From NCBI RefSeq assembly GCF_000025925.1, contig NC_014033.1:1350001-1382000 (forward strand): 32,000 bases of DNA, read 5' to 3'. The notes beneath the pieces were generated by a model. That model was not told the origin of the DNA, did no database searches, and saw only the letters and a list, made by a program, of their open reading frames with translations. Made by a program: the position numbers and the translations under genes. Below, piece after piece: positions 6,960 through 31,701 of this stretch (position 1 is the stretch's first letter; the number at the start of each line of letters is the position of its first letter). This DNA comes from Xylanibacter ruminicola 23. GTDB taxonomy: Bacteria; Bacteroidota; Bacteroidia; Bacteroidales; Bacteroidaceae.

Positions 6960-6972
6960 ATTCAGTATTTGT

Positions 6973-7152: not shown

Positions 7153-7187
7153 AATTGTCAATTATCAACTATCAACTGTCAATTATT
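7153..7187. repeat. heptamer array, 5 x 7 bp (AATTGTC AATTATC AACTATC AACTGTC AATTATT)
   Basis: Read directly. It fills the whole folD-to-TPR spacer, overlaps the folD stop codon and abuts ATG 7152. Confidence 0.9.
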
Positions 7188-8061
7188 TATAGTACTCTTT
7201 TTTACCTGCGGCTAAGGTATTCTTCATGAGCGAACAGATGGTCATGGGACCTACGCCACCAGGAACAGGTGTAATATACGAGCACTTAGGTGCAACCTCG
7301 TCGAACTTCACGTCGCCATTCAAACGGAATCCGCTCTTACGGGTAGCATCGGGGACGCGAGTGGTACCTACATCCACAATCACAGCACCCTCCTTCACCA
7401 TATCGGCGGTAACAAAGTCGGGCTGACCGATGGCAGCGATAATAATATCGGCGGCACGGCACTCCTCCTTCAGAGTTTTAGAACGCGAGTGGCATACGGT
7501 AACGGTAGCGTCGCCATACTGCTTCTGCATCATCAGCTGAGCCATGGGCTTACCTACGATGTTTGAACGACCCAGAATGACACACTTCTTACCGCTGGTT
7601 TCGATACCATAGTGCTTAAGCAGGGTGATAATTCCAAGAGGTGTGGCTGAGATGAAGCAAGGCAGTCCGATAGCCATACGACCCACGTTAATGGGGTGGA
7701 AACCGTCGACATCCTTACGGTAGTCGATTGCCTCGATAATCTTCTGCTCATCGATATGCTTTGGCAAGGGCAACTGCACGATGAAACCATCTACATCGTC
7801 GTCCTTGTTGAGCTTATCAACGCAACATAAAAGCTCATCCTCCGAGATATTATCCTCGAAACGGATGAGCGTACTCTTAAAGCCACAAGCCTCGCAGGCC
7901 AGCACCTTATTTTTTACATAAGTTTCCGATCCCCCATCGTGACCCACCAAGACGGCGGCCAGATGGGGTTGTTTGCCTCCTTGGGCAACAATCTCTTTTA
8001 CCTCCTCAGCGATTTCGGCCTTGATAGCCGCCGCTGTTGCTTTTCCATCAATCAGTTGCAT
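7183..8061 (-). CDS. folD: bifunctional methylenetetrahydrofolate dehydrogenase / methenyltetrahydrofolate cyclohydrolase
   Basis: 292 aa. Motifs [25 protein letters not shown] and PGGVGPMT. Confidence 0.92.
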
Positions 8062-8072
8062 ATGTGTTGTAT

Positions 8073-9434
8073 TTAGAACTTGGGCATACCACCTCGCATC
8101 TTCATGGCTGCAGCCATCTGAGCCATTTTCGACGAATTGAGGCCGGTAACCATCTTCATCATCTTGCGAGTCTGCTCGAACTGCTTCATCAGTCGGTTCA
8201 CATCGTCCAACTTGGTACCAGAACCGGCTGCGATACGACGGCGACGGCTTGGATTGATGATATCGGGATTAGCGCGCTCCTTTGGTGTCATCGAGTTAAT
8301 GATAGCCTCGATACCCTTAAAGGCATTGTCGTCGATATCCAGATCCTTAATCTGCTTGCCAACACCAGGAATCATGGCAGCCAGATCCTTGATGTTACCC
8401 ATCTTCTTGATCTGCTGTATCTGACCCATGAAGTCGTCGAAGTCGAACTTATTCTTGCGGATTTTCTTTTCAAGTTTCTTAGCTTCCTCCTCGTCGAACT
8501 GCTGCTGGGCACGCTCAACCAGAGAAACGATATCACCCATACCGAGGATACGGTCGGCCATACGCTCGGGATAGAACACATCGATAGCCTCCATCTTTTC
8601 GCCCGTACCTACAAACTTAATAGGCTTGGTAACTACGGTGCGGATTGAAAGGGCTGCACCACCACGGGTGTCACCATCGAGCTTGGTAAGGATAACACCA
8701 TCGAAATCCAGACGATCGTTGAACTCCTTAGCGGTGTTAACGGCATCCTGACCGGTCATTGAGTCAACTACGAACAGAGTCTCGTTAGGATTAACGGCCT
8801 TCTTCAGGGTCTCGATTTCCTGCATCATCTCCTCATCTACAGCCAGACGACCAGCGGTATCGATAATCACCACATCGTTGGCCTTCGACTTGGCCTCCTG
8901 GATAGCGTGGTTGGCAATCTCTACCACATTTTTATTATCAGGCTCGGAATATACGGGAACACCTACAGTCTCGCCCACTACCTTGAGCTGCTCGATAGCA
9001 GCAGGACGATACACGTCGCAGGCTACCAGCAAAGGCTTCTTGTGGTTGCGCTCCTTCAGCATCTTGGCCAGCTTACCACTGAAGGTGGTCTTACCCGAAC
9101 CCTGCAGACCCGACATCAGAATGATGGCAGGCGCACCGGCACGACCCTCGATCTTCAGTTCGGCAGCCTTACCACCCATCAGCTCGGCCAGCTCATCGTG
9201 AACAATCTTCACCATCAGCTGACTTGGCTTAACGGCTGTAAGCACGTTCATACCCAAAGCTTTCTGCTTAACGGTATCGGTAAAGCTCTTGGCTACCTTA
9301 TAGTTTACGTCGGCATCCAACAGGGCACGACGTACATCTTTCAGCGTTTCGGCTACGTTAATCTCGGTGATTTTACCCTCACCCTTCAGTATCTTAAACG
9401 AGCGTTCTAGTCTATCACTTAAATTCTCAAACAT
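8073..9434 (-). CDS. ffh: signal recognition particle protein Ffh
   Basis: 453 aa. SRP GTPase motifs [14 protein letters not shown] and TKLDGD, plus a Met-rich C-terminal M domain. Confidence 0.95.
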
Positions 9435-9457
9435 ATTACTAATCTATTTTTAGGGCG

Positions 9458-9465
9458 CAAAGTTA
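9458..9465 (-). promoter_or_regulatory. candidate -7 promoter box (TAACTTTG on minus strand) for ffh and the downstream cluster
   Basis: Exact TAnnTTTG match 23 nt upstream of ATG 9434. Confidence 0.4.
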
Positions 9466-9491
9466 CAATAAAAAAACGACACGCCCAAATT

Positions 9492-10124
9492 TTACTCGTC
9501 GTTTTTTACATTTTCTTTTATTTCTGTTGACTTAGGCCGCATACTGAACTCACAGCCGCAATACTGCTGATTATAGAACTGATACTCCTTAAGCAGTTGG
9601 TTGCGGCGTTCGTACAGGCCACCCTTGCGCCAGTTCTGGGCCCAAAATTTTACTTCATTGAACATTGAACATTGAGCATTGACCATTTGCTCTGCTGCCA
9701 GGCCGGCTTGGTTTATCTGGTCCAGATTCTTCCATCTGCTCGATGCCAGCGTGGTGGTGAAATACTTAATACCTAATGCCTGGGCCTGCTTGGCAGCGGC
9801 TATCAGGCGTAATGTAAAACAGCGTTCGCAACGGCGACCACGTTCGGGCTCCGATTCCAATCCGCACACACCACCCAACCACTCCTCGTGGTTATAATCG
9901 CCATCAATCCATCGTAGTCTTAAGCTCTCAGCATGACGCTTACTCTCCTGTTTACGAATCTCGTATTCCTCTCGGGGCCAGATATTTGGATTAAAATAAT
10001 AAATCACAGGTCGAATACCGTTAGCCATCATCCATTCGACGATAGCCGACGAGCAAGGTGCGCAGCAAGCATGCAACAATACCTCGCTGATATCTTCGGG
10101 TTTCTGTATAGCTGGTTGTTTCAT
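9492..10124 (-). CDS. queH: epoxyqueuosine reductase QueH (DUF208)
   Basis: ORF 9492..10133 starts at TTG, so it is trimmed to ATG 10124 (210 aa). Motifs LLHACCAPCS, RCERCFTLRL and the C-terminal YNQQYCGCEFS. Confidence 0.85.
   Translation of the reverse strand: MKQPAIQKPEDISEVLLHACCAPCSSAIVEWMMANGIRPVIYYFNPNIWPREEYEIRKQESKRHAESLRLRWIDGDYNHEEWLGGVCGLESEPERGRRCERCFTLRLIAAAKQAQALGIKYFTTTLASSRWKNLDQINQAGLAAEQMVNAQCSMFNEVKFWAQNWRKGGLYERRNQLLKEYQFYNQQYCGCEFSMRPKSTEIKENVKNDE
9656..9690. repeat. heptamer array, 5 x 7 bp (CATTGAA CATTGAA CATTGAG CATTGAC CATTTGC) inside queH
   Basis: Read directly. On the coding (minus) strand it encodes QMVNAQCSMFNE. Confidence 0.9.
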
Positions 10125-10235
10125 CGGGTGCAAAATTACACAATATTATTGTTAATCTTCCCAAATTTTGCATTTATTTCGCCTAAAATGTGTACTTTCG
10201 CAGAAAATTTATACTTTACTACAATTAATATAACG

Positions 10236-11375
10236 ATGATGAATTTAAATCTAACTAACAGTATTAAGATGCCTAACCACGAGCTTAGACGTCAGGTAAT
10301 CGAACTGTGTGAGAAGGTAGAGAAGCCACTGCTGAAGCTTTCTACCAAGGATTATGTTGAGAATGGACTGGGACACCTGGTTGAGCAATTCGACGGTCAG
10401 GCCGGTCTGGTAAACATCGAGGTGTTTAACGAACTGCAGCACACCATTACTGGTTGGCCCGGCGGCAAACCCAATGTAGATGATAGCACCCGTCCCGAGC
10501 GCGCAAAACCCTACCCCAAGCGTGTGATTGTATTCTCGCCCCACCCCGACGACGATGTAATTTCGATGGGTGGAACCATTCGCCGACTGATGCAGCAGAA
10601 CCACGATGTGCATGTAGCTTACGAGACATCGGGTAACATTGCTGTAGGCGATGAAGAGGTACGCCGCTTTATGCACTTCATCAATGGCTTTAACACCATT
10701 TTTGCCAACGGTAGCGACGAGGTTATTAAGCACTCATACCAGGCAGTAAAGGCCTTTATCAAGGGTAAGAAACCAGGCGATCTGGATAACGAGCAGATTC
10801 TGCGTCTGAAGGGACTGATTCGCCGTGGCGAGGCCCGACTGGCTTGTGAGTACAGTGGTATCGACAGTAAGCATATCCACTTCCTCGACCTGCCTTTCTA
10901 CGAGAGCGGTAAGATTGAGAAGCTGCCTATGACCGAGGCCGACGTAACCCCCATTATCGAGCTGATTAACGAGATTAAGCCACACCAGATTTACGTGGCT
11001 GCCGACCTGGCCGACCCACACGGCACACACCGTAAGTGTACCGATGCTGTGCTGGCTGCCATCGACGAGACCAAGAAGGCTGGTGCCGAGTGGTTGAAGG
11101 ACTGTCGTGTATGGATGTACCGTGGTGCCTGGGCTGAATGGGATGTAGCCGATATCGAGATGTGCGTACCTATGAGTCCTGAGGAACTGCGCGAGAAGCG
11201 AAATGCCATCCTGCGCCACCAGAGTCAGATGGAGAGTGCCCCATTCCTGGGTAACGACGAGCGCCTGTTCTGGCAGCGTGCCGAGGATCGCAACCGCGAA
11301 ACAGCCAAGCGCTACGACAATCTCGGACTGGCATGCTACGAGGCCATGGAGGCGTTTGTAGAGTACAAATTCTAA
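10236..11375 (+). CDS. LmbE/PIG-L family deacetylase-like protein
   Basis: ORF 9933..11375 trimmed to ATG 10236 (379 aa), because the upstream extension overlaps queH antisense. Motif VIVFSPHPDDDVISMGGTI is the PIG-L/LmbE signature. TGWPGGKP and downstream regions resemble the C-terminal part of long Bacteroidales NagB-like proteins (from memory). Confidence 0.7.
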   Translation: MMNLNLTNSIKMPNHELRRQVIELCEKVEKPLLKLSTKDYVENGLGHLVEQFDGQAGLVNIEVFNELQHTITGWPGGKPNVDDSTRPERAKPYPKRVIVFSPHPDDDVISMGGTIRRLMQQNHDVHVAYETSGNIAVGDEEVRRFMHFINGFNTIFANGSDEVIKHSYQAVKAFIKGKKPGDLDNEQILRLKGLIRRGEARLACEYSGIDSKHIHFLDLPFYESGKIEKLPMTEADVTPIIELINEIKPHQIYVAADLADPHGTHRKCTDAVLAAIDETKKAGAEWLKDCRVWMYRGAWAEWDVADIEMCVPMSPEELREKRNAILRHQSQMESAPFLGNDERLFWQRAEDRNRETAKRYDNLGLACYEAMEAFVEYKF

Positions 11376-11376
11376 A

Positions 11377-11411
11377 CGTAATAGATTAAACATTAAAGAT
11401 TAAACATTAAT
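11377..11411. repeat. heptamer array, 5 x 7 bp (CGTAATA GATTAAA CATTAAA GATTAAA CATTAAT)
   Basis: Read directly. It fills the spacer between the deacetylase stop (11373..11375) and the GH20 ATG (11410), which is part of the last unit. Confidence 0.85.
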
Positions 11412-13047
11412 GAAGACCGTAAACATGAAGTTTAAAGGAATGGTGTTAACAGCACTCATCTCGTTAGGCTCAATGACAGCTGCGGCTGGCGAGCCTGCCA
11501 ACTACAACGTGGTACCACTGCCACAGTCGATTGTGATAACAAAAGGTGCAGCCTTTGAGGTTGACGCCGACGTACAGATTCTGGCTCCTGCCGAACTGCA
11601 GAGCGAAGCAGAATTCCTGAAGCAGTACATCAAAGAGCTGACCAAGTGCGACCTGACCATCGTGAACAAGCGTGCTAAGAAGGTGCGCTACATCGAGCTG
11701 GCCGTATCGCCAAAGGTAACCGCTAAGGAAGGTTATGTATTGAACATCAACCAGAAGGGTGTTACCATCCAGGGTGGCACAGCAGCTGGTGTGTTCTATG
11801 GTATCCAGACCCTGCGCAAATCGCTGCCTATCGCCTGCAAGTGCGGTAAGCACAAGGGTGGCTGTCTGCCTGCCGCAACGATTACCGATGCCCCACGCTT
11901 TGGTTATCGCGGTATGATGCTGGATTGCTCACGCCACTTCTGGAGCGTGGATTTCGTAAAGAAGTTCATCGACCTGCTGGCTATGCACAACATGAACACC
12001 TTCCACTGGCATCTGAGCGACGACCAGGGTTGGCGTATCGAGATCAAGAAGTATCCTAAGCTTACCACTATCGGTTCGCAGCGTTCGGGTACTATTCTCG
12101 GCACCAACTCTGATTTGGACGATGGTATCCCCCACGGTGGTTTCTACACCCAGCAGGAGGCTCGCGACATTGTGAAATATGCCCAGGAGCGCCATATCAC
12201 TATCATCCCTGAGATTGACATGCCCGGACACATGCTGGCTGCACTGGCTTGCTATCCCGAACTGGGTTGCACAGGCGGTCCTTACGAGGTAGGTCACTAC
12301 TGGGGTGTTTACACCGATGTGCTGTGCGTAGGCAATCCTAAGGTTTACGAGTTTGTAGAGGGTGTGCTGGCCGAGATTATGGACATCTTCCCTTCGGAAG
12401 TAATCCATATCGGTGGCGACGAAACTCCAACAGTAAAATGGGAGGCGTGTCCTAAGTGTCAGGCCCTCGGACAGAGCAAGGATAAGCTGCAGGCTCACTT
12501 TACACAGAAGGTATTCGGCTACCTGACAGCCCATCAGCGCCGTGCCCTGGGATGGGACGAGATTCTGGATGGCTGTCCACAGGATGCCATGATTATGTCG
12601 TGGCGTGGTAGCGAGCCAGGTGCAAAGGCTGCCGAGTTAGGTCACGACGTGGTGATGACGCCTACATCGCATGTTTACTTCGACTATCTGCAGTCGAAGG
12701 AGGCTCAGTTCGAGCCAAGCCGTTGCGGTGGTTTCATTCCTGTAGAGAAGGTATATTCGCTGGAGCCTGCTCCCGACACCCTGTCAGTCGAAGCTAAGAA
12801 GCACATCTTGGGTACACAGGCCAACCTGTGGGCTGAGTATCTGCTGACCGAAGGACTGGTGGAATATCAGGCCCTGCCACGTATGTCGGCTCTGTCGGAG
12901 GTACAGTGGACACAGCCTGAGCTGAAGAACTACGACGCCTTTAAGGAGCGCTTGACACGATTCACAAAGCTGTTCGAGTTCTACAACTACAAATATGCCA
13001 AGCATCTGTGGCCTGAGCGTCAGTTGCCCAGTCGCTGGCAGTTCTAA
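11410..13047 (+). CDS. GH20 beta-N-acetylhexosaminidase
   Basis: 545 aa with a signal peptide. Motifs RGMMLDCSRHF, HWHLSDDQGWR and the catalytic HIGGDE. Confidence 0.9.
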   Translation: MKTVNMKFKGMVLTALISLGSMTAAAGEPANYNVVPLPQSIVITKGAAFEVDADVQILAPAELQSEAEFLKQYIKELTKCDLTIVNKRAKKVRYIELAVSPKVTAKEGYVLNINQKGVTIQGGTAAGVFYGIQTLRKSLPIACKCGKHKGGCLPAATITDAPRFGYRGMMLDCSRHFWSVDFVKKFIDLLAMHNMNTFHWHLSDDQGWRIEIKKYPKLTTIGSQRSGTILGTNSDLDDGIPHGGFYTQQEARDIVKYAQERHITIIPEIDMPGHMLAALACYPELGCTGGPYEVGHYWGVYTDVLCVGNPKVYEFVEGVLAEIMDIFPSEVIHIGGDETPTVKWEACPKCQALGQSKDKLQAHFTQKVFGYLTAHQRRALGWDEILDGCPQDAMIMSWRGSEPGAKAAELGHDVVMTPTSHVYFDYLQSKEAQFEPSRCGGFIPVEKVYSLEPAPDTLSVEAKKHILGTQANLWAEYLLTEGLVEYQALPRMSALSEVQWTQPELKNYDAFKERLTRFTKLFEFYNYKYAKHLWPERQLPSRWQF

Positions 13048-13076
13048 CAAATTCAAAACATCTACCAACACTTTTT

Positions 13077-15329: not shown

Positions 15330-15335
15330 AAAAGA

Positions 15336-15372
15336 AATCCCGCTTCAGTTTGTTTGAAGCGGGATTCTTTTT
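15336..15372. terminator. bidirectional intrinsic terminator
   Basis: 12-bp perfect stem AATCCCGCTTCA (15336..15347) / TGAAGCGGGATT (15355..15366) with a 7-nt loop. A T-run follows on the plus strand and a T-rich run on the minus strand. Lies between convergent genes. Confidence 0.75.
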
Positions 15373-16849
15373 ATAGATTAATCAATAACTCGGTTTTGCC
15401 ATCAGCTATGAGTTTTAATACCAACTCGCCAAAGAGTGTGTTCTGCCAAGCAAACCACGGACGGGTGTAATCGTTGGCATCATCCTTATTAAAACTCTCG
15501 TGTATAAAACCTGTACCGGCATCGGTAGCTAACAGGGTTCGCATGCACCAGCGAATCTCATCATCATCGGTGGCGGTAAAGCACTTCATCATAATCGACA
15601 TGGGCCATACCATATCATAACCGATATGCGGACCGCCTATACCCTCGCCTGCCTTGCCACGGAAGAACCAGGGGTTATCCTCGCTCCACACAAAACGACG
15701 GGTATTCTGATAGACAGGATCGTCCATAGGCACATCGCCTAAGTAACCCATACCCAACAAGCTGGGCACGTTGGCATCGTCCATCAACAGATGATTACCG
15801 AAACCATCCACCTCGTAGGCATAAATCTTTCCGTACTTAGGATGATCAACCACGGCATACTGCTTCAGGGCGGTTACTACCTCACTGGCCAAAGCCTGGC
15901 ACTCGGCAGCCTTTTCGGTCTTGGCGTTAACCTTAGTGAGAATCTCGGCCATCTTTTTAAGCGATGATACTGCCATGAAGTTAGAAGGCACCAGGAAAGG
16001 TAACGAGGTACGATCGTCGCTAGGACGGAATACCGAGGCTATCAAGCCAACAGGTTTTACTGGAGCGCCGTAGCCATTCCATCCCACGGTATCGTAGGTA
16101 CGATCGGTCATACGGAAGAATCGGTACGGACCATGTCCATCCTTACGCTGCTGCTCGCGGAAGGTTTTTACGATGTTATCAACTGCCTGCAACCAGATGT
16201 CGCCAAAGATTGTAGCATCACCCGTTACCAGCCAATACCAATAAGCCAGGCGCACGGGATAGCACAGCGAGTCGATCTCGTACTTACGCTCAAAAACATC
16301 CTTCGTCATCCTGGTCACATCCTTCTGCCAACCGGCACCGGTAGGACCATCGTTAAAGGCATTCGCGTACCTATCTATATTAATACACTTCAGCTGGCGC
16401 AGAATCACACCACGCAGCATTTTTCTGAGCTTCTTATCCTTGGCACACAACTGCACGTAAGGCCATACCTGAGCACCCGAATCGCGCAGCCACATAGCAG
16501 GGATATCGCCGGTATATACAAAGGTATCATCCTCGCCATCTACCACACGGTAATGCACGGTAGATTCCAAGGTGTTTGGAAAGCAGTTGGCAAACATCCA
16601 AGCCAGACGGGGATTGCCACTCAGCAGTTTCTGCACCTCACGGATTTTGGCCTCTACGGCATCCGACGTAAAAAGGCGCTCGGCAACCGGTGGGCGTTTG
16701 GAAGGATACACCTTAGTATTGTCGGAAACCACAGAGGTGTATCGGGCATTGACTTGCTGTGCTGAGGCTGTGAATAGTGAACAGTGAATAGTGAAAAGTA
16801 TCACTAAACACCATCTCACACAGCTCACACTTAGCGTATATCTAATCAT
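15371..16849 (-). CDS. GH125 exo-alpha-1,6-mannosidase (DUF1237 family)
   Basis: ORF 15371..16864 starts at GTG, so it is trimmed to ATG 16849 (492 aa). Signal peptide ends ...FTASAQQ. GDIPAMWLRDSGAQVWPY is the signature I associate with GH125. Confidence 0.8.
   Translation of the reverse strand: MIRYTLSVSCVRWCLVILFTIHCSLFTASAQQVNARYTSVVSDNTKVYPSKRPPVAERLFTSDAVEAKIREVQKLLSGNPRLAWMFANCFPNTLESTVHYRVVDGEDDTFVYTGDIPAMWLRDSGAQVWPYVQLCAKDKKLRKMLRGVILRQLKCINIDRYANAFNDGPTGAGWQKDVTRMTKDVFERKYEIDSLCYPVRLAYWYWLVTGDATIFGDIWLQAVDNIVKTFREQQRKDGHGPYRFFRMTDRTYDTVGWNGYGAPVKPVGLIASVFRPSDDRTSLPFLVPSNFMAVSSLKKMAEILTKVNAKTEKAAECQALASEVVTALKQYAVVDHPKYGKIYAYEVDGFGNHLLMDDANVPSLLGMGYLGDVPMDDPVYQNTRRFVWSEDNPWFFRGKAGEGIGGPHIGYDMVWPMSIMMKCFTATDDDEIRWCMRTLLATDAGTGFIHESFNKDDANDYTRPWFAWQNTLFGELVLKLIADGKTELLINL
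16770..16804. repeat. heptamer array, 5 x 7 bp (GTGAATA GTGAACA GTGAATA GTGAAAA GTATCAC) inside the GH125 signal-peptide coding region
   Basis: Read directly. The minus strand reads TTTTCAC TATTCAC TGTTCAC TATTCAC and encodes LFTIHCSLFT. Confidence 0.85.
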
Positions 16850-16853
16850 CACA

Positions 16854-16874
16854 AAACTTTTCACTCTTCACTAA
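16854..16874. repeat. short heptamer tract in opposite orientation (minus strand TAGTGAA GAGTGAA AAGTTTT) in the GH92-GH125 spacer
   Basis: Read directly. Positions 16857..16872 are the reverse complement of 16783..16798 at 15 of 16 positions. Confidence 0.8.
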
Positions 16875-16876
16875 AA

Positions 16877-19054
16877 TTAAGGACGATTCTTAATCTGAGT
16901 ACCCCATGCTGAAGGCTGGTTGCCCATCTCGAGTTCGAGTACACCACCCTTTACGATATCCTGGAACATCAGGTACGACTTAGCATAAGGCTTGCCGTTG
17001 AGCTTAGCACTCTGTACGTAGATATTCTCCTTGCTGTTGTTATGAGCCTTAACAGTAAATGTCTTACCGCCACCTACGTTAACCTTTGCCTCGTTGAAGA
17101 GTGGACTGCCGATGATGTACTTACCACCTGCAGGCTCTACCTGATACAGACCTAACGACGACATGACATACCAAGCCGACATCTGACCTACATCCTCGTT
17201 ACCCGACAGACCGTCGAAATCGTTGAAGTAGAGCTCACTCATGGTCTGGCGCAGCAACTTGGCAGCCTTCCAGGGCTGACCTACGTAGTTATACATATAT
17301 AATATGTGGTGACTAGGCTCGTTGCCATGTGCATACTGTCCAATCAGACCAGAGATATCGGGCGAAGCCTCGGCACCCATATCGCCACTGACGATGAAGA
17401 GTGAATCGAACTTCTCAACAAAACGCTTCTCGCTGGGGAACAAACTAACCAGTCCGTGTACATCATGAGGTACCAGCCAGGTGTACTGCCAAGCATTACC
17501 CTCGGTATAGTCGTCGGCGGTGTGTACACTCTTGAATGGATTGAATGGCTCGTGGAAACTACCATCGCTACCGCGTCCACGCATAAACAGAGTCTTGCGA
17601 TCGAAATAATGCTTATAGCCACGACTGCGGTTGTAGAAGTACTTGTAATCGGCCTTCTTACCCAACAGCTTAGCTACCTTGGCGATACAGTCGTCAGCCA
17701 GGGCATACTCCAAGCCCTTAGCCACAGTCTGGAAAGTAGAGTCCTTATCGTAAGGCAGATAGCCATACTTTTTGAGCAGATCCATACTGCGCTCATCAAG
17801 CATAGCCGATGTCTTCATCGCATTAAAGGCAGCCTCCTTATCGGTTACAAAACCTTTCAGAACCATATCGGCCAGCACAGCTGCACCGGGGTTACCCACC
17901 ATACAGTCGGTCTCGTTACCCATCAGGTGCCATACAGGCAGCTTGCCCTGCTGCTCGAAGATGTGCTGGAAGGTGGCAGCCATATCCTTCTGTTTCTCAG
18001 GATGAATCAGTGTCATCAAAGGATGAGCTGCACGATAGGTATCCCAGAGCGAGAAGGTGGTATAGTTGGTAAAGTCGCCATGATGCACCTTACCATCGGC
18101 ACCACGGTAGTTGCCTGTAACATCGCTGAACACCGATGGTGCAGTCATGGTGTGATAAAGGGCTGTATAGAAGATGGTACGAACGGTCTCATCGTCGGTA
18201 TCTACATCAATCTTACCCAGCTCGTCGTTCCATGCCTGATTAGCAGCAGCTACGGTAGCCTTGAAATCCCAACCTGGCAGCTCGGCCTTGAGGTTAGCCT
18301 TGGCATCCTCGACACTTACTGCCGAGATGGCACATTTTACCATCACTGGCTTTGAGATATCCTCGAAGGTAAGCACCATGATAGAGTCGCCTACCTGCTT
18401 CTTCACTTTTACAGGGGTTGAGAACTCGGCTGCAAAGAACACATGCTGATTGCGGGCCCAACCCGACGACTGACGGAAGCCGGTAACCATGGTAGGACTC
18501 TCAACAGAAAAACCGCTCTTACGCCAGTTGTCCCAACCGGTACCCTGTCGCAAATCGATACGCAGCATACCTTTATGATTGTCGGCACCGAATGTATAAC
18601 GGTGGAAACCAACGCGTTTAGTTGCAGTGAGCTCAACAAATACATTAGGCTGCTGCAAACGAATGGCATAGTAACCAGGACGAACCGACTCGTTGGCATG
18701 TGAGAACTTAGTCTCGGTAGCGCTGCAATGAGCCACTGGCAGGAAACCGATATCACCCAGATCGCCGATACCCGTACCACTCAGGTGGGTATGACCAAAA
18801 CCTACCAGTACCGAATCGCTGATGTGATAGCCCGAACACCAGTCCCATCCATGGGTGTGCTCTGTGGGGCCGAGCTGTATCACGCCAAAGGGTACGTTTG
18901 CACCCAAGAATACGTGACCGTGACCTCCGGTACCAATCCAGGGATTAACATAATTAGTAAACTCGTTTTTGTGTTGGCAAGCATCTGCCGCCATAACCTG
19001 ACCAGACACTGCAGTCATGGTCAACGCCAGAATAAATTTATTTAAGCATTTCAT
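16877..19054 (-). CDS. GH92 alpha-mannosidase
   Basis: 725 aa with a signal peptide. Motifs NPWIGTGGHGHVFLGANVPFGVIQLGP, WDTYRAAHPL and HGNEPSHHILYMY are typical of GH92. Confidence 0.9.
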   Translation of the reverse strand: MKCLNKFILALTMTAVSGQVMAADACQHKNEFTNYVNPWIGTGGHGHVFLGANVPFGVIQLGPTEHTHGWDWCSGYHISDSVLVGFGHTHLSGTGIGDLGDIGFLPVAHCSATETKFSHANESVRPGYYAIRLQQPNVFVELTATKRVGFHRYTFGADNHKGMLRIDLRQGTGWDNWRKSGFSVESPTMVTGFRQSSGWARNQHVFFAAEFSTPVKVKKQVGDSIMVLTFEDISKPVMVKCAISAVSVEDAKANLKAELPGWDFKATVAAANQAWNDELGKIDVDTDDETVRTIFYTALYHTMTAPSVFSDVTGNYRGADGKVHHGDFTNYTTFSLWDTYRAAHPLMTLIHPEKQKDMAATFQHIFEQQGKLPVWHLMGNETDCMVGNPGAAVLADMVLKGFVTDKEAAFNAMKTSAMLDERSMDLLKKYGYLPYDKDSTFQTVAKGLEYALADDCIAKVAKLLGKKADYKYFYNRSRGYKHYFDRKTLFMRGRGSDGSFHEPFNPFKSVHTADDYTEGNAWQYTWLVPHDVHGLVSLFPSEKRFVEKFDSLFIVSGDMGAEASPDISGLIGQYAHGNEPSHHILYMYNYVGQPWKAAKLLRQTMSELYFNDFDGLSGNEDVGQMSAWYVMSSLGLYQVEPAGGKYIIGSPLFNEAKVNVGGGKTFTVKAHNNSKENIYVQSAKLNGKPYAKSYLMFQDIVKGGVLELEMGNQPSAWGTQIKNRP

Positions 19055-19085
19055 AATTTAAATAGGTATATTAGCAATTCGCTTA

Positions 19086-19093
19086 CAAAATTA
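19086..19093 (-). promoter_or_regulatory. candidate -7 promoter box (TAATTTTG on minus strand) for GH92-GH125
   Basis: Exact TAnnTTTG match 31 nt upstream of ATG 19054. Confidence 0.4.
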
Positions 19094-19141
19094 TAAAATA
19101 GTGTACGATAACAGAACAAAATGCAAGATTATTATATGAAT

Positions 19142-19161
19142 TTAACCTAAATTAACCTAAA
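19142..19161 (+). repeat. perfect tandem direct repeat TTAACCTAAA x2 in the divergent PUL promoter region
   Basis: Read directly. Lies 28 nt upstream of the susC -7 box. Confidence 0.85.
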
Positions 19162-19188
19162 AGTCTTGCTAGTTTGTATAATTATGTT

Positions 19189-19196
19189 TAGATTTG
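19189..19196 (+). promoter_or_regulatory. candidate -7 promoter box (TAGATTTG) for susC/susD
   Basis: Exact TAnnTTTG match 50 nt upstream of ATG 19246. Confidence 0.45.
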
Positions 19197-19245
19197 CACC
19201 GTTTTTATAACTATAATTACTATTCAATTAATTAAAACCAACAAC

Positions 19246-22653: not shown

Positions 22654-22702
22654 TAGATGGTGCAATAGAACATTTGAAACTAACTAAAAGATTATAAGAT
22701 TT

Positions 22703-24418: not shown

Positions 24419-24442
24419 AAAATAGGCTGAAACACAATAATG

Positions 24443-24476
24443 ATCCCGAGACCCTTTGCGGGTTTCGGGATTTTTG
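24443..24476 (+). terminator. intrinsic terminator after susD
   Basis: 12-bp stem ATCCCGAGACCC (24443..24454) / GGGTTTCGGGAT (24460..24471) with one G-U pair and a 5-nt loop, followed by TTTTGTTT. Confidence 0.7.
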
Positions 24477-24478
24477 TT

Positions 24479-24486
24479 TATCTTTG
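24479..24486 (+). promoter_or_regulatory. candidate -7 promoter box (TATCTTTG) for the GH18-GH78 gene
   Basis: Exact TAnnTTTG match 24 nt upstream of ATG 24510. The TTTG at 24455..24458 is at a plausible -33 distance. Confidence 0.45.
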
Positions 24487-24509
24487 CAGCGATAAACCCA
24501 AAAACAAAA

Positions 24510-27500
24510 ATGAAAAGACTACTTTTACTATTTATCGGACTGATGGCCTTCTGGCATGCTGATGCCGGAAAGCAAGTAATGAATCGTGTGGTGGTGGCTT
24601 ACGTCACCGCAGGTACTAACGACGTTCCAGACCCTACGTTGATGACCCACATCAACTATGCATTCGGAACAGTCAACAAAACATTTAATGGTGTAGATAT
24701 CCAGAAGCCAGAACGCCTACGGGTGATTGCTGGTTTGAAACAGCAGAACCCCGACTTAAAAGTGCTGCTGTCGATTGGTGGATGGACAGCAGGACGATTC
24801 AGCGAAATGGCTGCCACCAAACAGAACCGCGCTGCCTTTGCCAAGGACTGCAAACGCATTGTAGATGAGTTCGGACTGGATGGTATCGATATCGACTGGG
24901 AATACCCGTCATCAAGCGAGGCTGGTATCTCGTCATCACCCCACGATATCGATAACTTTACACTGCTGATGAAGGAACTGCGCCGTGTGTTAGGAAAACA
25001 GAAACTGCTTACCATCGCCACCATCTGCACCGCAAAGTATATCGACTTTAAGAAATGTCTGCCTTATCTCGACTTGGTGAATGTGATGTCGTATGATATG
25101 AGCGATCCCAATAAGGCACACCATGCTGCCCTCTACCCCTCGCCTATCTCAGGTTACTGCACCGGCTCTGAAGCTGTCGAGGCACACCTGAAGGCTGGTG
25201 TTCCCAAGGAGAAGCTGGTGATGGGAATGCCTTTCTACCAAAAAGGCAGAAGACAGGACGCTGGTGTTGACGAATATCTGCGTACGGGTATCCTGCCCGT
25301 TGGCTACACACGTCAGTGGAGCGATGTGGCACAAGCCGATTATATTGCCAACGAAAAGGGCGAGTTTGTATGGGCTTACGAAACCACACGTTCGTTAGGT
25401 GCCATCTGTCAGTATATCCTGGATAACAACCTGTGTGGCGGTATGTACTGGGAATACTCGAACGACAGAACGGGTGAGTTCAGTTCGCTGCTGAGTAAAA
25501 TGCTATTAGAGCAGTCCACCACTGTAGGCCATAAAACCGCAGCCCTTAACACATCAGCCTGGCAGAATACCGAATGGATTTCGGTTGTGAATGCCCCTAT
25601 AGTAACAGGCCGTGCCGACCAGGTGATTCGTGCTGCAGATGGCGCTAACTGGTTTGTATCTACCATCAAAAACGAAAAGCCCGTAACCCAAGCTAAATGG
25701 ATGACAACGGGATTAGGTGTGTTTGAACTTTACCTGAACGGACAACCTGTAGGCGACGAAATCCTGAAGCCCGGATTTACACACTACGCCAAAACCAAGC
25801 GTTCGTTTACTTACGATATCACCGAGGCTTTCCAGAAGCAGACTGGTAACGAGAATGTACTCTCGGCTCAGGTCACACCGGGCTGGTGGGCTGATAAGAT
25901 TATCACTCCAGGCGATCACGAAGGTATGATTGGTAAGAAGTGTGCCTTCCGTGGTGTATTGGAACTGACATTTGCCGATGGCACCAAACAGTACTACGGC
26001 ACCAACTGCAAGGATTGGAAAGCAGGTATTGCAGGTCAGGTAAAGCACGCCGGTATATTTGATGGCGAGGCTTTTGATGCCCGCGAACTGCCTGGATTTG
26101 CTACCCCTGAAAAACTCTCAACTCCCGAGGTAAATAGCGAGTTTACTGGCGAGATTGTACCATCCGATGGTGCTGAGGTTTATCTGCGTCGCGACTTGGC
26201 ATTACGCCCCGCCATGGCCTATATCTGGCAAGGTGTAACCGGCGAGAAGCAAGCCGCCGACAAGAAGGATATCGAATATGGTAAGGTTACCATCAAACGC
26301 AACTATGCCCTGGGCGAAACCATCACTCTGAATCCTGGCGAAACGCTGGTTGTAGATTTCGGACAGAATACATCAGGTGTACCATGCTTCAGCTTTAAAG
26401 CCAACGAAGGTACTACCCTGACTTGTCTGCCAGCAGAAATCCTGAACGATGGCAACGGTGCCGAGCGCCGTGGCATGGACGGACCAGAAGGTAGCGTGCA
26501 TCGTCGCAACCTGCGTATCCAGAACACCGGTATCCGCATCGATTACACCTTTGCCAACAACCCCAGCTTTGTAAGCTACTATCCCCACTGCACCTTCTTT
26601 GGCTACCGTTACATCTCGGTAACCGCTACCGATAAGGTAGAGATTCAACGCGTTGAATCACTGCCTGTAACCAGCATAGCCAAAGGTCTGGAAATAGGTA
26701 AAATCACCACAGGTAACGACCTGATTAACAAGCTGATTTCGAACACCGTTTGGGGCCAGCGCTCTAACTATCTCTCGGTTCCTACCGACTGTCCGCAGCG
26801 CGATGAGCGATTAGGTTGGATGGCTGATACTCAAGTGTTTACCGAAGCCGGTTCGTTCTTTGCTAATACCGACGGATTCTTCCATAAATGGACCCGCGAT
26901 GTACGCGACTCACAGAGTGCTACAGGTGGATTCCCAGGCGTATCGCCTATTGCCCAGTATGGTAATGAGATGATGCGTTTGGGTTGGGCCGATGCCGGTG
27001 TGATTGTGCCATGGACAGTATGGAAGCAGTTTGGCGATAAAGCCATCGTAGATGAGAACTGGGAAGCGATGGAACGCTTCATGAATCACATCAACGAGGT
27101 GAAATACAACCACGAGGCACTCGTAAAAGAGAATGGCAACTACCAATGGGCCGACTGGCTGAGCTGCGAGGCTTTGGAGACTTGTATTAACCTCGCTTTC
27201 GACGAGAACTGGAAGCCACGTCCCGATGCCATTGCCTACTGGAATTACCTGAGTGCCTGCTACTGGCAGATTGATGCCGAGATGATGCGTGACATGGCAC
27301 TGGCAACAGGTCGCGATGCCTCGAAATACCAGCAGATGGCAGAGGCTGCCCAGACCTATCTGAAGCAGCAGTTCCTGAATCAGAATGGTACCTTTAAGAC
27401 TGCCGTACTGAACACCATGCAAACCCCTGCCCTGTTTGCCTTGAAGAACCGTCTGGTAGATGGTGCTGCCAAGGAGCGTATGATTCAGCGCCTGCGCCAG

Positions 27501-28037
27501 AATTTTGAGGAACATGGCAACTGCTTGCAGACCGGTTTCCTAGGCACCAGTATCCTGATGGCTACACTCACCGAAAACGGCTTGGTAGATATTGCTTACG
27601 AGCTGCTTTTCCAGCGTAAGAACCCCAGTTGGATTTACTCGATTGACAACGGTGCCACCACCATCTGGGAGCGTTGGAACAGCTACCGTCGCGATAATGG
27701 CTTAGGACCTAACGGCATGAACAGTTTTAACCACTATGCCTACGGTGCCGTATGCGAGTGGATTTGGGAGACTGCAGCCGGTATTGCCACCGACACCCAG
27801 GTGCCAGGCTTTAAGCAGATTATCATGAAACCCGTACCCGACAAGCGCTTAGGTTTTGTGAAGGCCGAATACCAGTCGGCAGCCGGTTTGATTAAGAGCG
27901 AATGGAAATACGAAGGCGACCTGTGGTTGTGGAACTTCACCGTTCCCGAAGGAGCCACCGCCATCGTTACCCTACCCGGCGAGACAACCCCGAAGACATA
28001 TCCAAGTGGCACTTACCACTTACAAAAGAAACTCTAA
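24510..28037 (+). CDS. two-catalytic-domain glycosidase: N-terminal GH18 (chitinase/endo-beta-N-acetylglucosaminidase-like) fused to a C-terminal GH78 (alpha-L-rhamnosidase family)
   Basis: ORF 24456..28037 starts at a TTG inside the terminator hairpin, so it is trimmed to ATG 24510 (1175 aa). Signal peptide MKRLLLLFIGLMAFWHADA. GH18 motifs LSIGGW, DGIDIDWEYP, MSYD and GGMYWEYSND. GH78 motifs GLGVFELYLNGQPVGDEILKPGFTHY and VPTDCPQRDERLGWMADTQVF. Confidence 0.85.
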   Translation: MKRLLLLFIGLMAFWHADAGKQVMNRVVVAYVTAGTNDVPDPTLMTHINYAFGTVNKTFNGVDIQKPERLRVIAGLKQQNPDLKVLLSIGGWTAGRFSEMAATKQNRAAFAKDCKRIVDEFGLDGIDIDWEYPSSSEAGISSSPHDIDNFTLLMKELRRVLGKQKLLTIATICTAKYIDFKKCLPYLDLVNVMSYDMSDPNKAHHAALYPSPISGYCTGSEAVEAHLKAGVPKEKLVMGMPFYQKGRRQDAGVDEYLRTGILPVGYTRQWSDVAQADYIANEKGEFVWAYETTRSLGAICQYILDNNLCGGMYWEYSNDRTGEFSSLLSKMLLEQSTTVGHKTAALNTSAWQNTEWISVVNAPIVTGRADQVIRAADGANWFVSTIKNEKPVTQAKWMTTGLGVFELYLNGQPVGDEILKPGFTHYAKTKRSFTYDITEAFQKQTGNENVLSAQVTPGWWADKIITPGDHEGMIGKKCAFRGVLELTFADGTKQYYGTNCKDWKAGIAGQVKHAGIFDGEAFDARELPGFATPEKLSTPEVNSEFTGEIVPSDGAEVYLRRDLALRPAMAYIWQGVTGEKQAADKKDIEYGKVTIKRNYALGETITLNPGETLVVDFGQNTSGVPCFSFKANEGTTLTCLPAEILNDGNGAERRGMDGPEGSVHRRNLRIQNTGIRIDYTFANNPSFVSYYPHCTFFGYRYISVTATDKVEIQRVESLPVTSIAKGLEIGKITTGNDLINKLISNTVWGQRSNYLSVPTDCPQRDERLGWMADTQVFTEAGSFFANTDGFFHKWTRDVRDSQSATGGFPGVSPIAQYGNEMMRLGWADAGVIVPWTVWKQFGDKAIVDENWEAMERFMNHINEVKYNHEALVKENGNYQWADWLSCEALETCINLAFDENWKPRPDAIAYWNYLSACYWQIDAEMMRDMALATGRDASKYQQMAEAAQTYLKQQFLNQNGTFKTAVLNTMQTPALFALKNRLVDGAAKERMIQRLRQNFEEHGNCLQTGFLGTSILMATLTENGLVDIAYELLFQRKNPSWIYSIDNGATTIWERWNSYRRDNGLGPNGMNSFNHYAYGAVCEWIWETAAGIATDTQVPGFKQIIMKPVPDKRLGFVKAEYQSAAGLIKSEWKYEGDLWLWNFTVPEGATAIVTLPGETTPKTYPSGTYHLQKKL

Positions 28038-28041
28038 CAAA

Positions 28042-28081
28042 AAAGCCGCCCTTCAGCATTTTGAAGAGCGGCTTTCTTTTT
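28042..28081. terminator. bidirectional intrinsic terminator
   Basis: AAAGCCGCCCTTCA (28042..28055) pairs with TGAAGAGCGGCTTT (28062..28075): 13 bp plus one mismatch, 6-nt loop. T-runs follow on both strands. Lies between convergent genes. Confidence 0.7.
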
Positions 28082-28092
28082 GGAATATCTGA

Positions 28093-31000
28093 TTAGTTAA
28101 TCGGAGTTACCTCAATCACAGGACTCTGACCTCTACCATCCTCAGCTTTCCATTCGATGGTAACCACCTTCTGTTCGCCAGGCATCAAGGTGAAGTAGTT
28201 ATCGCTGTAAATCACAGGCAGAATCTGCTCGCCATCGGCACCCTTCAGATTGATACGCAGGAATGGAGCTACCGACTTACCAGTGTTCTTCAATGTCACA
28301 ACAGCCTTGGTACCAGTAACCTTTACGCTCTGCTGCAAGGCTGGTTTTGGCAGGGTGTTCAGGGCACGGAAATTATTCTCCTCTTTGCCCATGATATACT
28401 CGTTCTCAGAAATCACACCACGCTTACCTGCAAGTGTCAAACGCAGGAACCATACATCTGATGGCGCCTGAGCCTGCAACTTAGCCAACTTCAGGATGGC
28501 CTTGGTGGTATCCTCGTTGCTATTCAAACGAACCTTCTGCTGGCGCACTTTCTTACCATTCAGATCGAATACCGTTACTGTAGCGGTGATACCAGCCACA
28601 TTTCCTGCAGAGTGGTTCACTACCTCAACGCTATCCGTCAGAGCGTTATACTGAATATGTAAGGGCTCGCAGGCCTTCTTTACACCAAAGTAAGCCGCTG
28701 TGGGGTCGAAATAGTAATCGTAAGTCTGCCAAACCATCGATGGCCAGCAAGCATGACTCATCCAGATCAACAGTCCTGCACGACTTTTGCTGGTGCTCTC
28801 GTACATGCCACGATAACCGTTATAGTTAATGAGCTGAGCCCAACGGGTAAACTCCTCGGCGCTGCTAGCCTTGCCAAGTCCCTCTTCTACCAGTCCGTTA
28901 AACTCGCGGGCACGCTGGGCACCTAACAGGGTGTAATCGTGCATACCCCACTGTACGCTCTGTGGCCAGAGTGAATCAGGACTCAATGTACGCTTCAAAC
29001 TCTCGATATTCATCACGTTAGGCATACCACGCTCGGTGTGAATCTTACCACTCTGACGAGAGAAGTACTCCTTCATAGGCAGTGCCCAGTATGGACCGTG
29101 ACCACTCACACCATCATCAGCCGAGCTTGAGATAAACTCCAATCCAGGCGACAGGGTATGTACATACTCACGCAACTTGCGATCGATAGCCTCAGGTGGG
29201 AATCCCTCGTTACGTCCTACCCAGATACCAATGCTGGCATGACTGCGGATACGGCGCAGATAATCCTGTGCATTGCTCAGGAACAGCATATCGTCGTGAG
29301 GATCAGGTCCGTCGGCTGGGTTAGCCAACCAGAAGTCCTGCCATACCATGATACCATGCTTATCGCAAGCCTCGTAGAAAGCCTCGTCACCAATCTGTCC
29401 TACCCAGTTACGAATCATGGTGCAGTTCATCTCCTTGTGATACCCTACAGCAATATCGTACTCACGTGAGCGGTACAGCAGATTGTGCTCATCGAAGCCC
29501 CAGTTACCACCCAGTGGAATAAAGCGGCGTCCATTGATATACATGATGAGCGAATCCTTCAGACCCTCGTATTTCATCTCGCGGATACCAGCCTGATAGT
29601 TGATGGTAGATGCCACGCCGTTATCAGGGGTGAAGGTAAAGCCAGCCTCGTACAGATTAGGCTCGCCGTAACCATTAGGCCACCACAACTTAAAGTCGCT
29701 GCTGGTCAACTGCTTGTTGCAATGAGGACAGAAGCTTACCTCCTGCTCGGTGTTGGCAGGCAGCGTCATCTTCTTCTCAAACTTCACGTCACCAATCCAG
29801 CCCTTCAGGGTACCAGTAACTGGCTTGTTATCGTTGTTGCGTACAAACACAGCAGGCTTTACACTGGCGGTTTTGCCATCAGCAGCCAACTTGGTTTTTA
29901 CATATGGATCGCTCACAGTCACATTACCTGTTGAGGTGAGATAAACCTCGTTCCAGATACCAACCTCGCGTCCACGTACAGTGGTAATCCAGTCCCATCC
30001 GATGGTAGCATGGAAGGTAGGATTATCGGCACCAAGCAGTCCACCATTCAACTGTGTGGTGTTGCGGTCCTTCTCCTTTACGGCACCAAAGTACTTGTTG
30101 CACTCCACCTCTACTGCCAGGTAGTTCTTACCCTTATGCAGCAGACCGGTTACATTGAATTTGCCACGCATAAAGGCACCCTCGATACGGCCCAGACGCT
30201 GTCCGTTCAGATAAACGTTAGCTTTCCAGTTGATACCATCGAAGTTGAGCCACTGCTGCTCGCCATCAATACGCTCTACGTTGAACTCCTGACGGTACCA
30301 GAAGTTTGAGCGGAAATATGATTCTGAAATCTGATTGATATCGTCGGCATAGTTTGGATCGGGAACAGCACCGATATTCATAAACGATGCCAGCACGGTG
30401 CCAGGAACTGTAGCAGGCACCCAACTTCTACTATCATAATCAGCCGATGCAATCTGCTCGCCACGGGCATCCACCTCCGATGCACGCTGCAACTGCCACA
30501 TGCCGCCACTCAACTCGTAGCGTCCGTTCTTCATACCAGCCAAAGCATGTGGGGTGTAAACCTGTTTCTGCTTCGACAGCACCTCCAACTCACGCAGAGC
30601 ATAGCAGCCAGCCTCGCCGGGCTCCTGGAGGAGCAAGCGCACGTAGCGGGCAGTACATTGAACATTGACCATTGAAGATTGACCATTGAGAGATGCCACC
30701 TTTTTCCAGGTTTGGGCGTCGTCGGATATTTGAATGATGCCTTTCTTGGGGGCATAAAGCCAGTCGAGATTAATCTGCTCGATAGGCAGACTCTTTCCAA
30801 GGTCGGTGTATATCCACTGCTCGCCGCCACCATCGCTCATCCATACGCTGCTGAACTGCTGCGATGGCAACAGCTCTACATACTCGCCGATGGCATTCTG
30901 GAACTGCAACTCGTACACGTCCCAGTGGGCAGCGCCAGTCATATCCATGACCACACGCAGATGCTGGGTGTTTACAGGTGTTTTAAACTTAATCAGCTCA

Positions 31001-31623: not shown

Positions 31624-31650
31624 ATTGTCGTAGTTTCTGATTTTTGTGCA

Positions 31651-31658: not shown

Positions 31659-31701
31659 CAAAAAAAATGGATACCATACTAAACTTTCGTCATTTTTTTG
31701 C

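Follow-up and report, generated by a model that had tools for sequence, protein, structure and literature searches.

Tandem repeats of a heptanucleotide unit, known as STRR, were reportedly described in Calothrix and Nostoc by Mazel et al. in 1990. According to published accounts of the survey of Mrazek, Guo and Shah (2007), heptanucleotides are the most abundant among the long simple sequence repeats (SSRs) with units of 5-11 nucleotides (nt) in repeat-rich genomes (PMC4679880, PMC4692102), and polymerase slippage was put forward there as the origin of long SSRs (PMC4679880). Here we describe six short heptamer arrays, A1 to A6, in a stretch of 32,000 nt of Xylanibacter ruminicola 23 (NC_014033.1, positions 1,350,001 to 1,382,000; GC content 49.6%; hereafter the window). 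An earlier note, made from the sequence of this stretch, had proposed them as a recurring family that it did not recognize as a described class. The class is nevertheless a described one, heptameric SSRs having already been reported as over-represented in many bacteria (PMC4679880, PMC4692102), and the taxon and the units are new. With a probability of roughly 60%, the six sites are heptanucleotide SSRs of the same broad class as those of Xanthomonas, cyanobacteria, Beggiatoaceae and some Bacteroidetes, driven by slippage and kept where they are tolerated.

Among the closest described systems, the TAACTGA repeats of MacGregor (2015) comprise 2-6 units in marine Beggiatoaceae, some Cyanobacteria and five Bacteroidetes (PMC4679880). 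Most sets precede a start codon by no more than a few nt, are forward-oriented and carry stops in every frame, and they often overlap the stop codon of the preceding gene; copies in reverse orientation occur within open reading frames (ORFs) and are translated as part of the protein periphery, and no function has been proven (PMC4679880). Rehm et al. (2015) reported GGGAATC and GGGGA(T/C)T heptamers of Xanthomonas and Nostoc, dispersed between co-directional ORFs and extensively variable in length and sequence between close relatives, with about 185 GGGAATC arrays per Xanthomonas genome (mostly intergenic, mode four units) and 70-75 convergent inverted pairs per genome (PMC4692102). In Nostoc PCC 7120, effects on reporter expression have been reported for TTTTGAA/TTCAAAA repeats near start codons (bioRxiv 10.1101/2022.06.06.494920).

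Six heptamer arrays in one window

Direct reading of the window revealed all six arrays at the following positions, with every letter as quoted in the earlier note.

7153..7187, minus strand: A1, TTGAYAR-type, ~4.5 units (Tandem Repeats Finder (TRF), direct read, strain alignment)
9656..9690, plus strand: A2, ATTGAAC-type, the strand given carrying TGA (TRF, direct read, Pfam)
11377..11411, plus strand: A3, (GATTAAACATTAAA)n array (TRF, direct read, strain alignment)
16770..16804, plus strand: A4, AGTGAAW-type, the plus strand carrying TGA (TRF, direct read, Pfam)
16854..16874, minus strand: A5, TAGTGAA-type, 2-3 units (direct read, strain alignment)
30656..30690, plus strand: A6, ATTGAMN-type, the plus strand carrying TGA (TRF, direct read, Pfam)

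TRF detected five period-7 arrays (7153-7186, 9656-9687, 11385-11410, 16770-16799 and 30655-30689; scores 40-50, 3.7-5.0 copies), the sixth, A5 (16854-16874), having merely 2-3 units and not being among them. These five arrays with a TRF score of at least 40 are in excess over chance, as none was obtained in 200 dinucleotide-preserving shuffles, and no other period with at least 3 copies was found by TRF in the window. The units are contiguous 7-mers without spacers, and no cas domains were present among the ten window proteins scanned with Pfam, so that the arrays are not CRISPR; being direct repeats, with a weak internal 13-nt inverted match in A1 only, they are not palindromic repetitive extragenic palindromic (REP) sequences or bacterial interspersed mosaic elements (BIMEs) either, and both distinctions had been drawn correctly before.

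Four unit types were recognized: TCAATGN (A2 and A6), AGTGAAW (A4 and A5, mutually inverted), ATTAAAS (A3) and TTGAYAR (A1); the TAACTGA unit is absent from all six arrays. The view of all arrays as variants of one heptamer is accordingly no more than partly true, and many unrelated heptamers were seen in related genomes. A core A[GT]T[GA]A in at least 3 units occurs in 4 of the 6 window arrays vs 6 of about 33 unselected arrays of related genomes, and against this background the likeness of the window arrays is only moderately unusual.

Three of the arrays, as originally described, lie within genes (A2 in queH, A4 in the signal-peptide region of GH125, A6 in GH2), and three fill spacers between co-directional genes. 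A1, A3 and A5 make up nearly the entire 30-, 34- and 27-nt spacers, occupying 3 of the window's 14 co-directional junctions, and stretch from the upstream stop codon to 0-10 nt short of the ATG; A2, A4 and A6 sit in their coding sequences in reverse orientation. Half of the arrays are thus coding, which is unusual when the unit length is not divisible by 3. Openness of the coding arrays in all three frames had been counted as extra evidence but follows from arithmetic alone: because 7 = 1 mod 3, one reading frame meets all three unit phases within three units, and therefore a coding array that is open in the used frame must be open in all three. By the same relation, one stop triplet per unit shuts all frames.

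The arrays resemble cyanobacterial heptamers in being tandem, in the presence of several unit families per genome and in that some abut or overlap start codons; the TTTTGAA unit of Nostoc is similar to the ATTGAAN units found here, although the phylum and the STRR unit sequences differ. Tandem direct 7-nt units beyond chance are shared with the long SSRs of Mrazek and co-workers as these are summarized in later papers, where Prevotella and rumen Bacteroidales are not among the genomes described; period 7 is also predominant in the sample gathered here, whose loci had each been selected by one heptamer array. With the TAACTGA repeats the window arrays have their placement in common, namely A1, A3 and A5 before start codons and A2, A4 and A6 as reverse coding copies. 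The unit, however, differs, the nearest being TAATTGA in strain L008; strain-level polymorphism is documented for the Prevotella arrays, in contrast to TAACTGA repeats; and several heptamers coexist here, whereas in the BOGUAY (Orange Guaymas 'Maribeggiatoa') genome related heptamers are rare as repeats (PMC4679880). The units of Xanthomonas and Nostoc are G-rich and can form G-quadruplexes, unlike the AT-rich Prevotella units, and those repeats lie closer to the upstream ORF end and are rarely coding (7-11%), whereas half are coding here (PMC4692102). No paper on Prevotella heptamers turned up in the literature search.

Variation of spacer and coding arrays among strains

The strain comparison was based on ten other assemblies with an identical Ffh protein, whose DNA is 94.5-98% identical across ~19 kb (strains and related loci carry L numbers); the window itself matches a stretch of contig BPTT01000001.1 (assembly GCA_019973335.1, L004) at 100% identity. 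Rumen isolates and metagenomes are the sources of the related contigs. Presence and unit number, which the earlier note had proposed to compare across strains, both proved variable: A1 occurs in 1 of 10 strains, A3 has 4, 6 or 8 units or is absent, and A5 ranges from ~2 to 6.6 units. Arrays thus appear and disappear at their sites and gain and lose whole units, the differences among strains coming in 7- or 14-nt steps, and the range of ~2 to 8 units contradicts the near-constant array length claimed before.

In the sense direction A1 reads TAA TTGACAG TTGATAG TTGATAA TTGACAA TT ATG and constitutes the whole 30-nt spacer from the folD stop (7183-7185) to the ATG (7152) of a gene for a 59-amino-acid TPR protein. 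It is a 31-bp insertion confined to the source strain; the other nine have TAATG at this point, in which the folD stop and the TPR start overlap. When the filled site was aligned with the empty one, neither terminal inverted repeats nor a target duplication emerged, and the A1 sequence has no second occurrence in the 1.18 Mb of DNA compared. A3 fills the 34-nt spacer between the stop of a PIG-L-family gene (11373-11375) and the ATG of GH20 (11410), and its alleles are perfect (GATTAAACATTAAA)n repeats, perfect 14-mers, with 4 units in the window, L006 and L007, 6 in L011, and 8 in L002, L005 and L010; an ordinary A-rich non-repeat spacer stands in its place in L003, L008 and L009. A5 lies forward on the sense (minus) strand in the 27 nt that separate the GH92 stop from the GH125 start, and it varies in 7-nt steps, with region lengths of 41, 48, 62 and 69 nt.

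A fourth spacer is informative by its changing content. In the window and most strains the POR beta/gamma junction (4720-4796) is a 77-nt non-repeat spacer holding an imperfect inverted repeat, GCAGAGAG-TTTA-CTCTTTGC. Elsewhere it holds arrays, AGTGAAT in L006 (14606-14636) and L009 (14610-14633), TAATTGA in L008 (14544-14571) and TTAAGAG in the more distant L132 (15468-15501), each beginning at the stop codon and ending 4-5 nt short of the ATG. Different AT-rich heptamers have taken over this junction three times.

Within queH, A2 lies inside the PF02677 match and is read in reverse on the coding (minus) strand as (AATGGTC)(AATGCTC)(AATGTTC)(AATGTTC)AATGAAG, giving MVNAQCSMFNE. In a set of 120 QueH cluster representatives this position proved to be a hotspot of indels, with 0 to ~24 extra residues, its commonest state being ..AEEMVNE-VKFW.. 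or ..AEQAVEG-VKFW.. with no insert; a QueH homologue that NCBI names Prevotella ruminicola is 78% identical. The array-free queH DNA GAAATGGTCAATGAAGTA (..AEEMVNE-VKFW..) already holds a TCAATGA seed, and the A2 allele equals GAAATGGTCAATGAAGTA plus three TCAATGN units (+21 nt, 7 amino acids, in frame); A2 is therefore an amplification of a local heptamer. Most strains have A2 with unit variants. L006 carries a different, non-repeat loop sequence that is 21 nt shorter, and L003, L007 and L011 carry a 30-nt hairpin insert within the array. In other Prevotella lineages the same QueH loop holds an unrelated ACCCATC-type array (L134, 1153-1184), encoding HPSPIT.., or a degenerate version of it (L132, ~10450-10500).

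A4, read in reverse on the coding (minus) strand of GH125 as ACTTTTC ACTATTC ACTGTTC ACTATTC AC, encodes the hydrophobic core of the N-terminal signal peptide (..LFTIHCSLFT-ASAQ). Its unit number is identical in all six strains that carry it. The remaining four (L003, L007, L008 and L011) lack both A4 and A5 and have a wholly different GH125 5' region, 21 nt shorter, with a conventional signal peptide. A4 and A5 form an inverted pair with 17-18-nt arms, 89-94% complementary and 56-63 nt apart, within the following region:

16755..16895, minus strand: GH125 5' region with A5, the start codon (16849) and A4 (predicted fold)

The predicted minimum free energy (MFE) of this transcript segment is -39.6 kcal/mol vs -29.9 ± 3.3 for shuffles (z = -2.9). 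The partners of A4 in the predicted MFE structure are mainly degenerate GTGA-rich units located between the two arrays; an A5-A4 stem sequestering the GH125 start codon was rejected as A4 pairs with these intervening units and not with A5.

The F5/8 type C domain of GH2 has A6 in one of its loops; the array is read in reverse on the coding (minus) strand as TCAATGG TCAATCT TCAATGG TCAATGT TCAATGT, giving LNGQSSMVNVQC. A prior protein-word homologue search had yielded just 6 fragments, and a metagenome scan found ten GH2 relatives. Of these, L135 (99% identity) has the same array; in L136 and L137 (86-87%) it is split by the same 30-nt hairpin insert as in queH; in L138 (90%) the loop is not a repeat and is shorter by 9 nt, ending in GTGAATGTAAAG where the A6 array ends in TTCAATGTACTG; and L141-L143 (58-64%) have no GH2 loop at this position. 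Arrays recur at permissive sites, and their coding alleles stay in frame: no out-of-frame allele of queH, GH125 or GH2 was found in the 10 strains, the 120 QueH representatives or the GH2 relatives.

Wider distribution and genomic surroundings

When genomes, one per species, were scanned for four AKTGA cores at 7-nt spacing, at least 120 matches were returned, which are true tandem repeats; ~17 would be expected by chance in the whole collection (our own estimate, assuming equal base frequencies). By their record titles, the matches listed include ~38 Bacteroidota (~20 of them rumen Prevotella or Bacteroidales metagenome-assembled genomes (MAGs)), ~22 Acidobacteriota and ~13 Cyanobacteria, and they span many phyla. 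The same 2-8-kb stretches are crowded with unrelated heptamer arrays, e.g., CTCTAAC, GACAACA, TAAGAGT, TGGTGCT, AGCATCC and TATCTAT. The loci had been chosen for holding one heptamer array; once this selecting array was set aside, 32 of the 47 arrays of at least 3 copies in rumen Bacteroidales loci had a period of 7, as did 121 of the 189 in other phyla. The forward orientation of spacer arrays holds, as the earlier note had it, for the informative arrays of the focal species, but not for other rumen Bacteroidales, in which ~9-10 are forward vs 6 reverse and one operon (L111) has both orientations in consecutive spacers; a crude test across phyla gave 13 forward and 22 reverse of 108.

Of 326 heptamer arrays (loci L012-L132 and the window), 92 (28%) are members of adjacent inverted pairs, in which the gap has a median of 30 nt; neighbours in direct orientation are rare except at one locus (L127). 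The 5' arm is G-rich and purine-rich on both strands in 42 of the 46 pairs (42 vs 3), and the A5/A4 pair of the window conforms; this polarity is also that of the pairs of Rehm et al. (2015). In a Fibrobacteria MAG (L089), three inverted pairs of AAAGTGA arrays (175-407, 4511-4672 and 6904-7062) flank homologous inner sequences of 100-170 nt that share ..GCCGCTTCCAAGG.TCAA..CACTGGCGA.GCCAC.., and by their sequence they resemble a foldback or miniature inverted-repeat transposable element (MITE) family with heptamer-array arms.

The 30-nt insert common to the queH and GH2 arrays, CGCTCCAGCT(C/T)TGCTGGCTTGCAAGGCAAG, stands in the same unit phase in both genes and belongs to a family of elements of 29-39 nt, built of CGCTC, hairpin 1 and hairpin 2, in which compensatory changes keep both stems. 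No copy was found in the window; the following were located in other strains and loci.

L003/L007/L011, 9739-9768: 30-nt hairpin element in queH arrays
L136/L137, 1795-1824: 30-nt hairpin element in GH2 arrays
L146, 488-517: hairpin element
L145, 699-728 (minus-strand coordinates): hairpin element in reverse orientation
L147, 885-923: 39-nt form in an AAAGTTC array
L008, 20550-20588; L010, 20664-20702 and 20741-20769; L005, 19662-19690: hairpin elements outside arrays
L115, 6803-6832: hairpin element in frame in an ORF, outside arrays

Within arrays the element occurs in both orientations and at various unit boundaries, always in frame. Copies outside arrays are also found between genes where a strain-variable island has its boundary, and L010 has two inverted copies enclosed in a larger palindrome (AACCAAG...CTTGGTT). 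Inserts within arrays stand between identical heptamers, which suggested a 7-bp target-duplication footprint by which cycles of insertion and excision would add units; this model was rejected on account of the copies outside arrays (L005, L008, L010 and L115), none of which has a 7-bp flanking duplication. The hairpin core gave no match in viral contigs or phage genomes. Palindromic elements of Rickettsia insert in frame into protein-coding genes. The hairpin element, in frame in queH, GH2 and the L115 ORF, is like these in that respect, and like both them and REP/BIME sequences it is small, structured and dispersed; it differs from them in its far shorter length (29-39 nt), and no associated transposase was identified.

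Gene identities in the window were derived from Pfam scans of ten window proteins and from gene calls in related loci.

6729-6959, minus strand: 4Fe-4S ferredoxin gene
6973-7152, minus strand: gene for the 59-amino-acid TPR protein
7183-8061, minus strand: folD
8073-9434, minus strand: ffh
9492-10124, minus strand: queH
~10269-11375, plus strand: PIG-L-family deacetylase gene
11410-13047, plus strand: GH20
13077-15329, plus strand: second GH20
15371-16849, minus strand: GH125
16877-19054, minus strand: GH92
19246-24418, plus strand: SusC/SusD pair
28093-31677, minus strand: GH2

The 130-amino-acid ORF at 6729-7121 is an over-extension, as relatives annotate a 76-amino-acid ferredoxin (6729-6959) and the separate TPR protein of 59 amino acids (6973-7152). 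In L007 and L011 (12479-16787) a ~4.6-kb insertion between the TPR and ferredoxin genes (window equivalent ~6960-6972) breaks up the folD-TPR-ferredoxin-POR gene string and carries four minus-strand genes: YjbH, one without a Pfam match, one with a weak CarboxypepD_reg match, and OmpA. The divergent intergenic region of GH92 and SusC contains a direct repeat, TTAACCTAAA x2 (19142-19161), with a similar TTTAGGTTAA-type repeat at the equivalent place in the distant relatives L132 and L133 (2493-2514); the repeat might be a regulator site of this glycan-utilisation locus. A 19-bp direct repeat TTTCGCAGAAAATGTATAC in 2.2 copies occupies 10177-10217 in the divergent queH/PIG-L intergenic region. 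Directly after susD, a GC-rich hairpin, ATCCCGAGACCC TTTG CGGGTTTCGGGAT (24419-24480), overlaps the listed TTG start of ORF 24456-28037; this start is probably wrong, because the gene calls of L001 on the same DNA begin 29 codons later. No Rfam family or tRNA was found in the window, L008 or L010.

Possible origins and roles of the arrays

According to the favoured explanation, slipped-strand mispairing or unequal exchange in replication or repair would amplify a short local seed to ~4-5 units, and the amplified arrays would later be resized by the same slippage or exchange, their 7-nt loops presumably evading mismatch repair. Purifying selection would then leave arrays where they are harmless: the AT-rich form between the stop and the next start codon in operons, and, within genes, solely units that are stop-free on the strand read and keep the frame by their net length, in indel-tolerant segments such as the QueH loop, the GH2 discoidin-domain loop and the signal-peptide core. 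As a consequence, the distance between genes changes, an overlapping TAATG junction becoming a 30-nt spacer at A1, and enzymes gain short peptide loops. Both slippage as the mechanism and the neutrality of its products are inferred.

Several observations weigh against this explanation. Slippage alone leaves the preferred unit length of 7 nt unexplained. Array alleles of strains that are 98% identical differ at ~11% of positions and so change faster than their flanks, and the arrays are internally heterogeneous, with units differing within one array. A1 would need ~4 duplications and many transitions in a strain diverged by 2%, and recombinational import or an error-prone process would therefore be required. 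The A6 segment exceeds its counterpart in a 55%-identical homologue by just 1 amino acid and is thus no simple expansion. For the A[GT]T[GA]A core shared by window arrays a rough binomial p of ~0.01 was obtained, the polarity of inverted pairs is not predicted by simple slippage, and the same 30-nt insert in like arrays of two genes hints at ectopic exchange or targeting.

Foremost among the alternatives, and in our view still unlikely, is an action of the spacer arrays in cis on mRNA, in which they would serve as a leader or landing pad for non-Shine-Dalgarno initiation or as a multi-site target of a protein that binds single-stranded RNA and has a footprint of 7 nt (S1, Csp, HutP-like), with unit number tuning downstream translation and the coding arrays arising as by-products. 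The informative spacer arrays of the species (A1, A5 and those of the POR junction in L006/L009 and L008) are all forward and stop-bearing, beginning at the stop codon and ending 2-10 nt ahead of the ATG, and the threefold colonisation of the POR junction by differing AT-rich heptamers points in the same direction. Such a role was proposed for TAACTGA repeats by MacGregor (2015; PMC4679880), start-codon repeats of TTTTGAA affect a reporter according to the Nostoc preprint (bioRxiv 10.1101/2022.06.06.494920), and CspB has been reported to bind one heptamer per protein. Related genomes, however, harbour dozens of unrelated units, and this diversity makes one sequence-specific binder unlikely; both orientations are present in spacers of other rumen Bacteroidales, A1 is missing in most strains and A3 and A5 in several, and half of the window arrays are within coding sequences. 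The related suggestion of an unstructured ramp for re-initiation is not supported by predicted folding (ViennaRNA, -40..+20 around start codons), as array junctions were not less structured than ten array-free ones (A1 -7.5, A5 -7.9 and A3 -2.3 kcal/mol vs ~-1 to -9 for the array-free junctions, n=10). No evidence of a dedicated or sequence-specific function of the arrays was found.

A lower likelihood is assigned to a mobile or recombinogenic system at the DNA level that makes or targets the arrays, either as foldback or MITE-like units with array arms or through the CGCTC element, like arrays sharing their origin by transposition or ectopic gene conversion. The same insert in the same phase of the TCAATG-type arrays of queH and GH2, the occurrence of the hairpin family at other unit boundaries, in reverse (L145) or as a 39-nt form (L147), with stems kept by compensatory changes, the inverted A4/A5 pair together with the 92 of 326 arrays paired across phyla at a 30-nt gap with a polarity of 42 to 3, and the MITE-like homologous inner sequences of the three L089 pairs all speak for it. 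They have to be set against A1, which shows no terminal inverted repeats or target duplication and does not recur elsewhere in the DNA compared, and against the unit of A2, seeded by local sequence, both of which also argue against the mini mobile element suggested earlier; moreover, an origin of units as footprints is unsupported by the hairpin copies outside arrays, the window is devoid of the hairpin element, and heptamers at one site differ by lineage. In its most far-reaching form, to which we give comparably little credence, the arrays would not be passive products of slippage but would mark, or serve as the favoured substrate for, a dedicated process at the DNA level that writes ~4-5 heptamers at gene boundaries and in permissive loops, often as polar inverted pairs and coupled to tiny structured elements such as the CGCTC double hairpin, in rumen Prevotella and many phyla. 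If true, this process would represent a new kind of micro-element system, one by which spacing within operons is edited and enzymes receive in-frame peptides.

That the arrays are protein-binding DNA sites, i.e., iterons or heptad operators, is very improbable. Heptad arrays are a known operator architecture, as in the V. cholerae ctxAB promoter with its TTTTGAT heptads. The omega repressor of pSM19035 binds heptad repeats, WATCACW, from which the A5 unit ATTCACT departs at one position, and this likeness speaks for the operator explanation. Three of the six arrays are nevertheless inside coding sequences, the spacer arrays are operon-internal between stop and start codons and not at promoters, close relatives dispense with the arrays, and the units are too diverse for a single regulator; the iteron-like site for one protein, proposed at the outset, is likewise hard to reconcile with this diversity and with coding arrays. 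Equally improbable is the operation of the coding arrays as contingency loci, in which a single 7-nt unit gained or lost, its length being indivisible by 3, would turn queH, GH125 or GH2 on and off by frameshift: the instability of unit number anticipated by this idea is evident in the 7/14-nt steps of the spacer arrays, but none of the coding alleles examined is frameshifted, all being in frame with lengths differing by multiples of 3 nt (GH2 alleles included), A4 has the same unit number in its six carriers, and the genes code for housekeeping or glycan-catabolic enzymes and are not typical phase-variable surface genes.

Taken as heptanucleotide SSRs, the arrays belong to a kind of bacterial repeat that has been noted since 1990 and was the dominant long-SSR class according to the 2007 survey. 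They change gene spacing, shift predicted start sites and inflate the apparent allelic diversity of enzymes, and they are likely assembly and annotation traps in metagenomes. With many sequenced strains of rumen Prevotella, this locus is a natural experiment in which rates, orientation rules and expression effects are measurable: it comprises the birth of an array in a single strain, steps of 7 or 14 nt, an operon junction with three unrelated heptamers, an enzyme loop with two, and in-frame peptides that arrays encode in a tRNA-modification enzyme, in a glycosidase domain and in a signal peptide.

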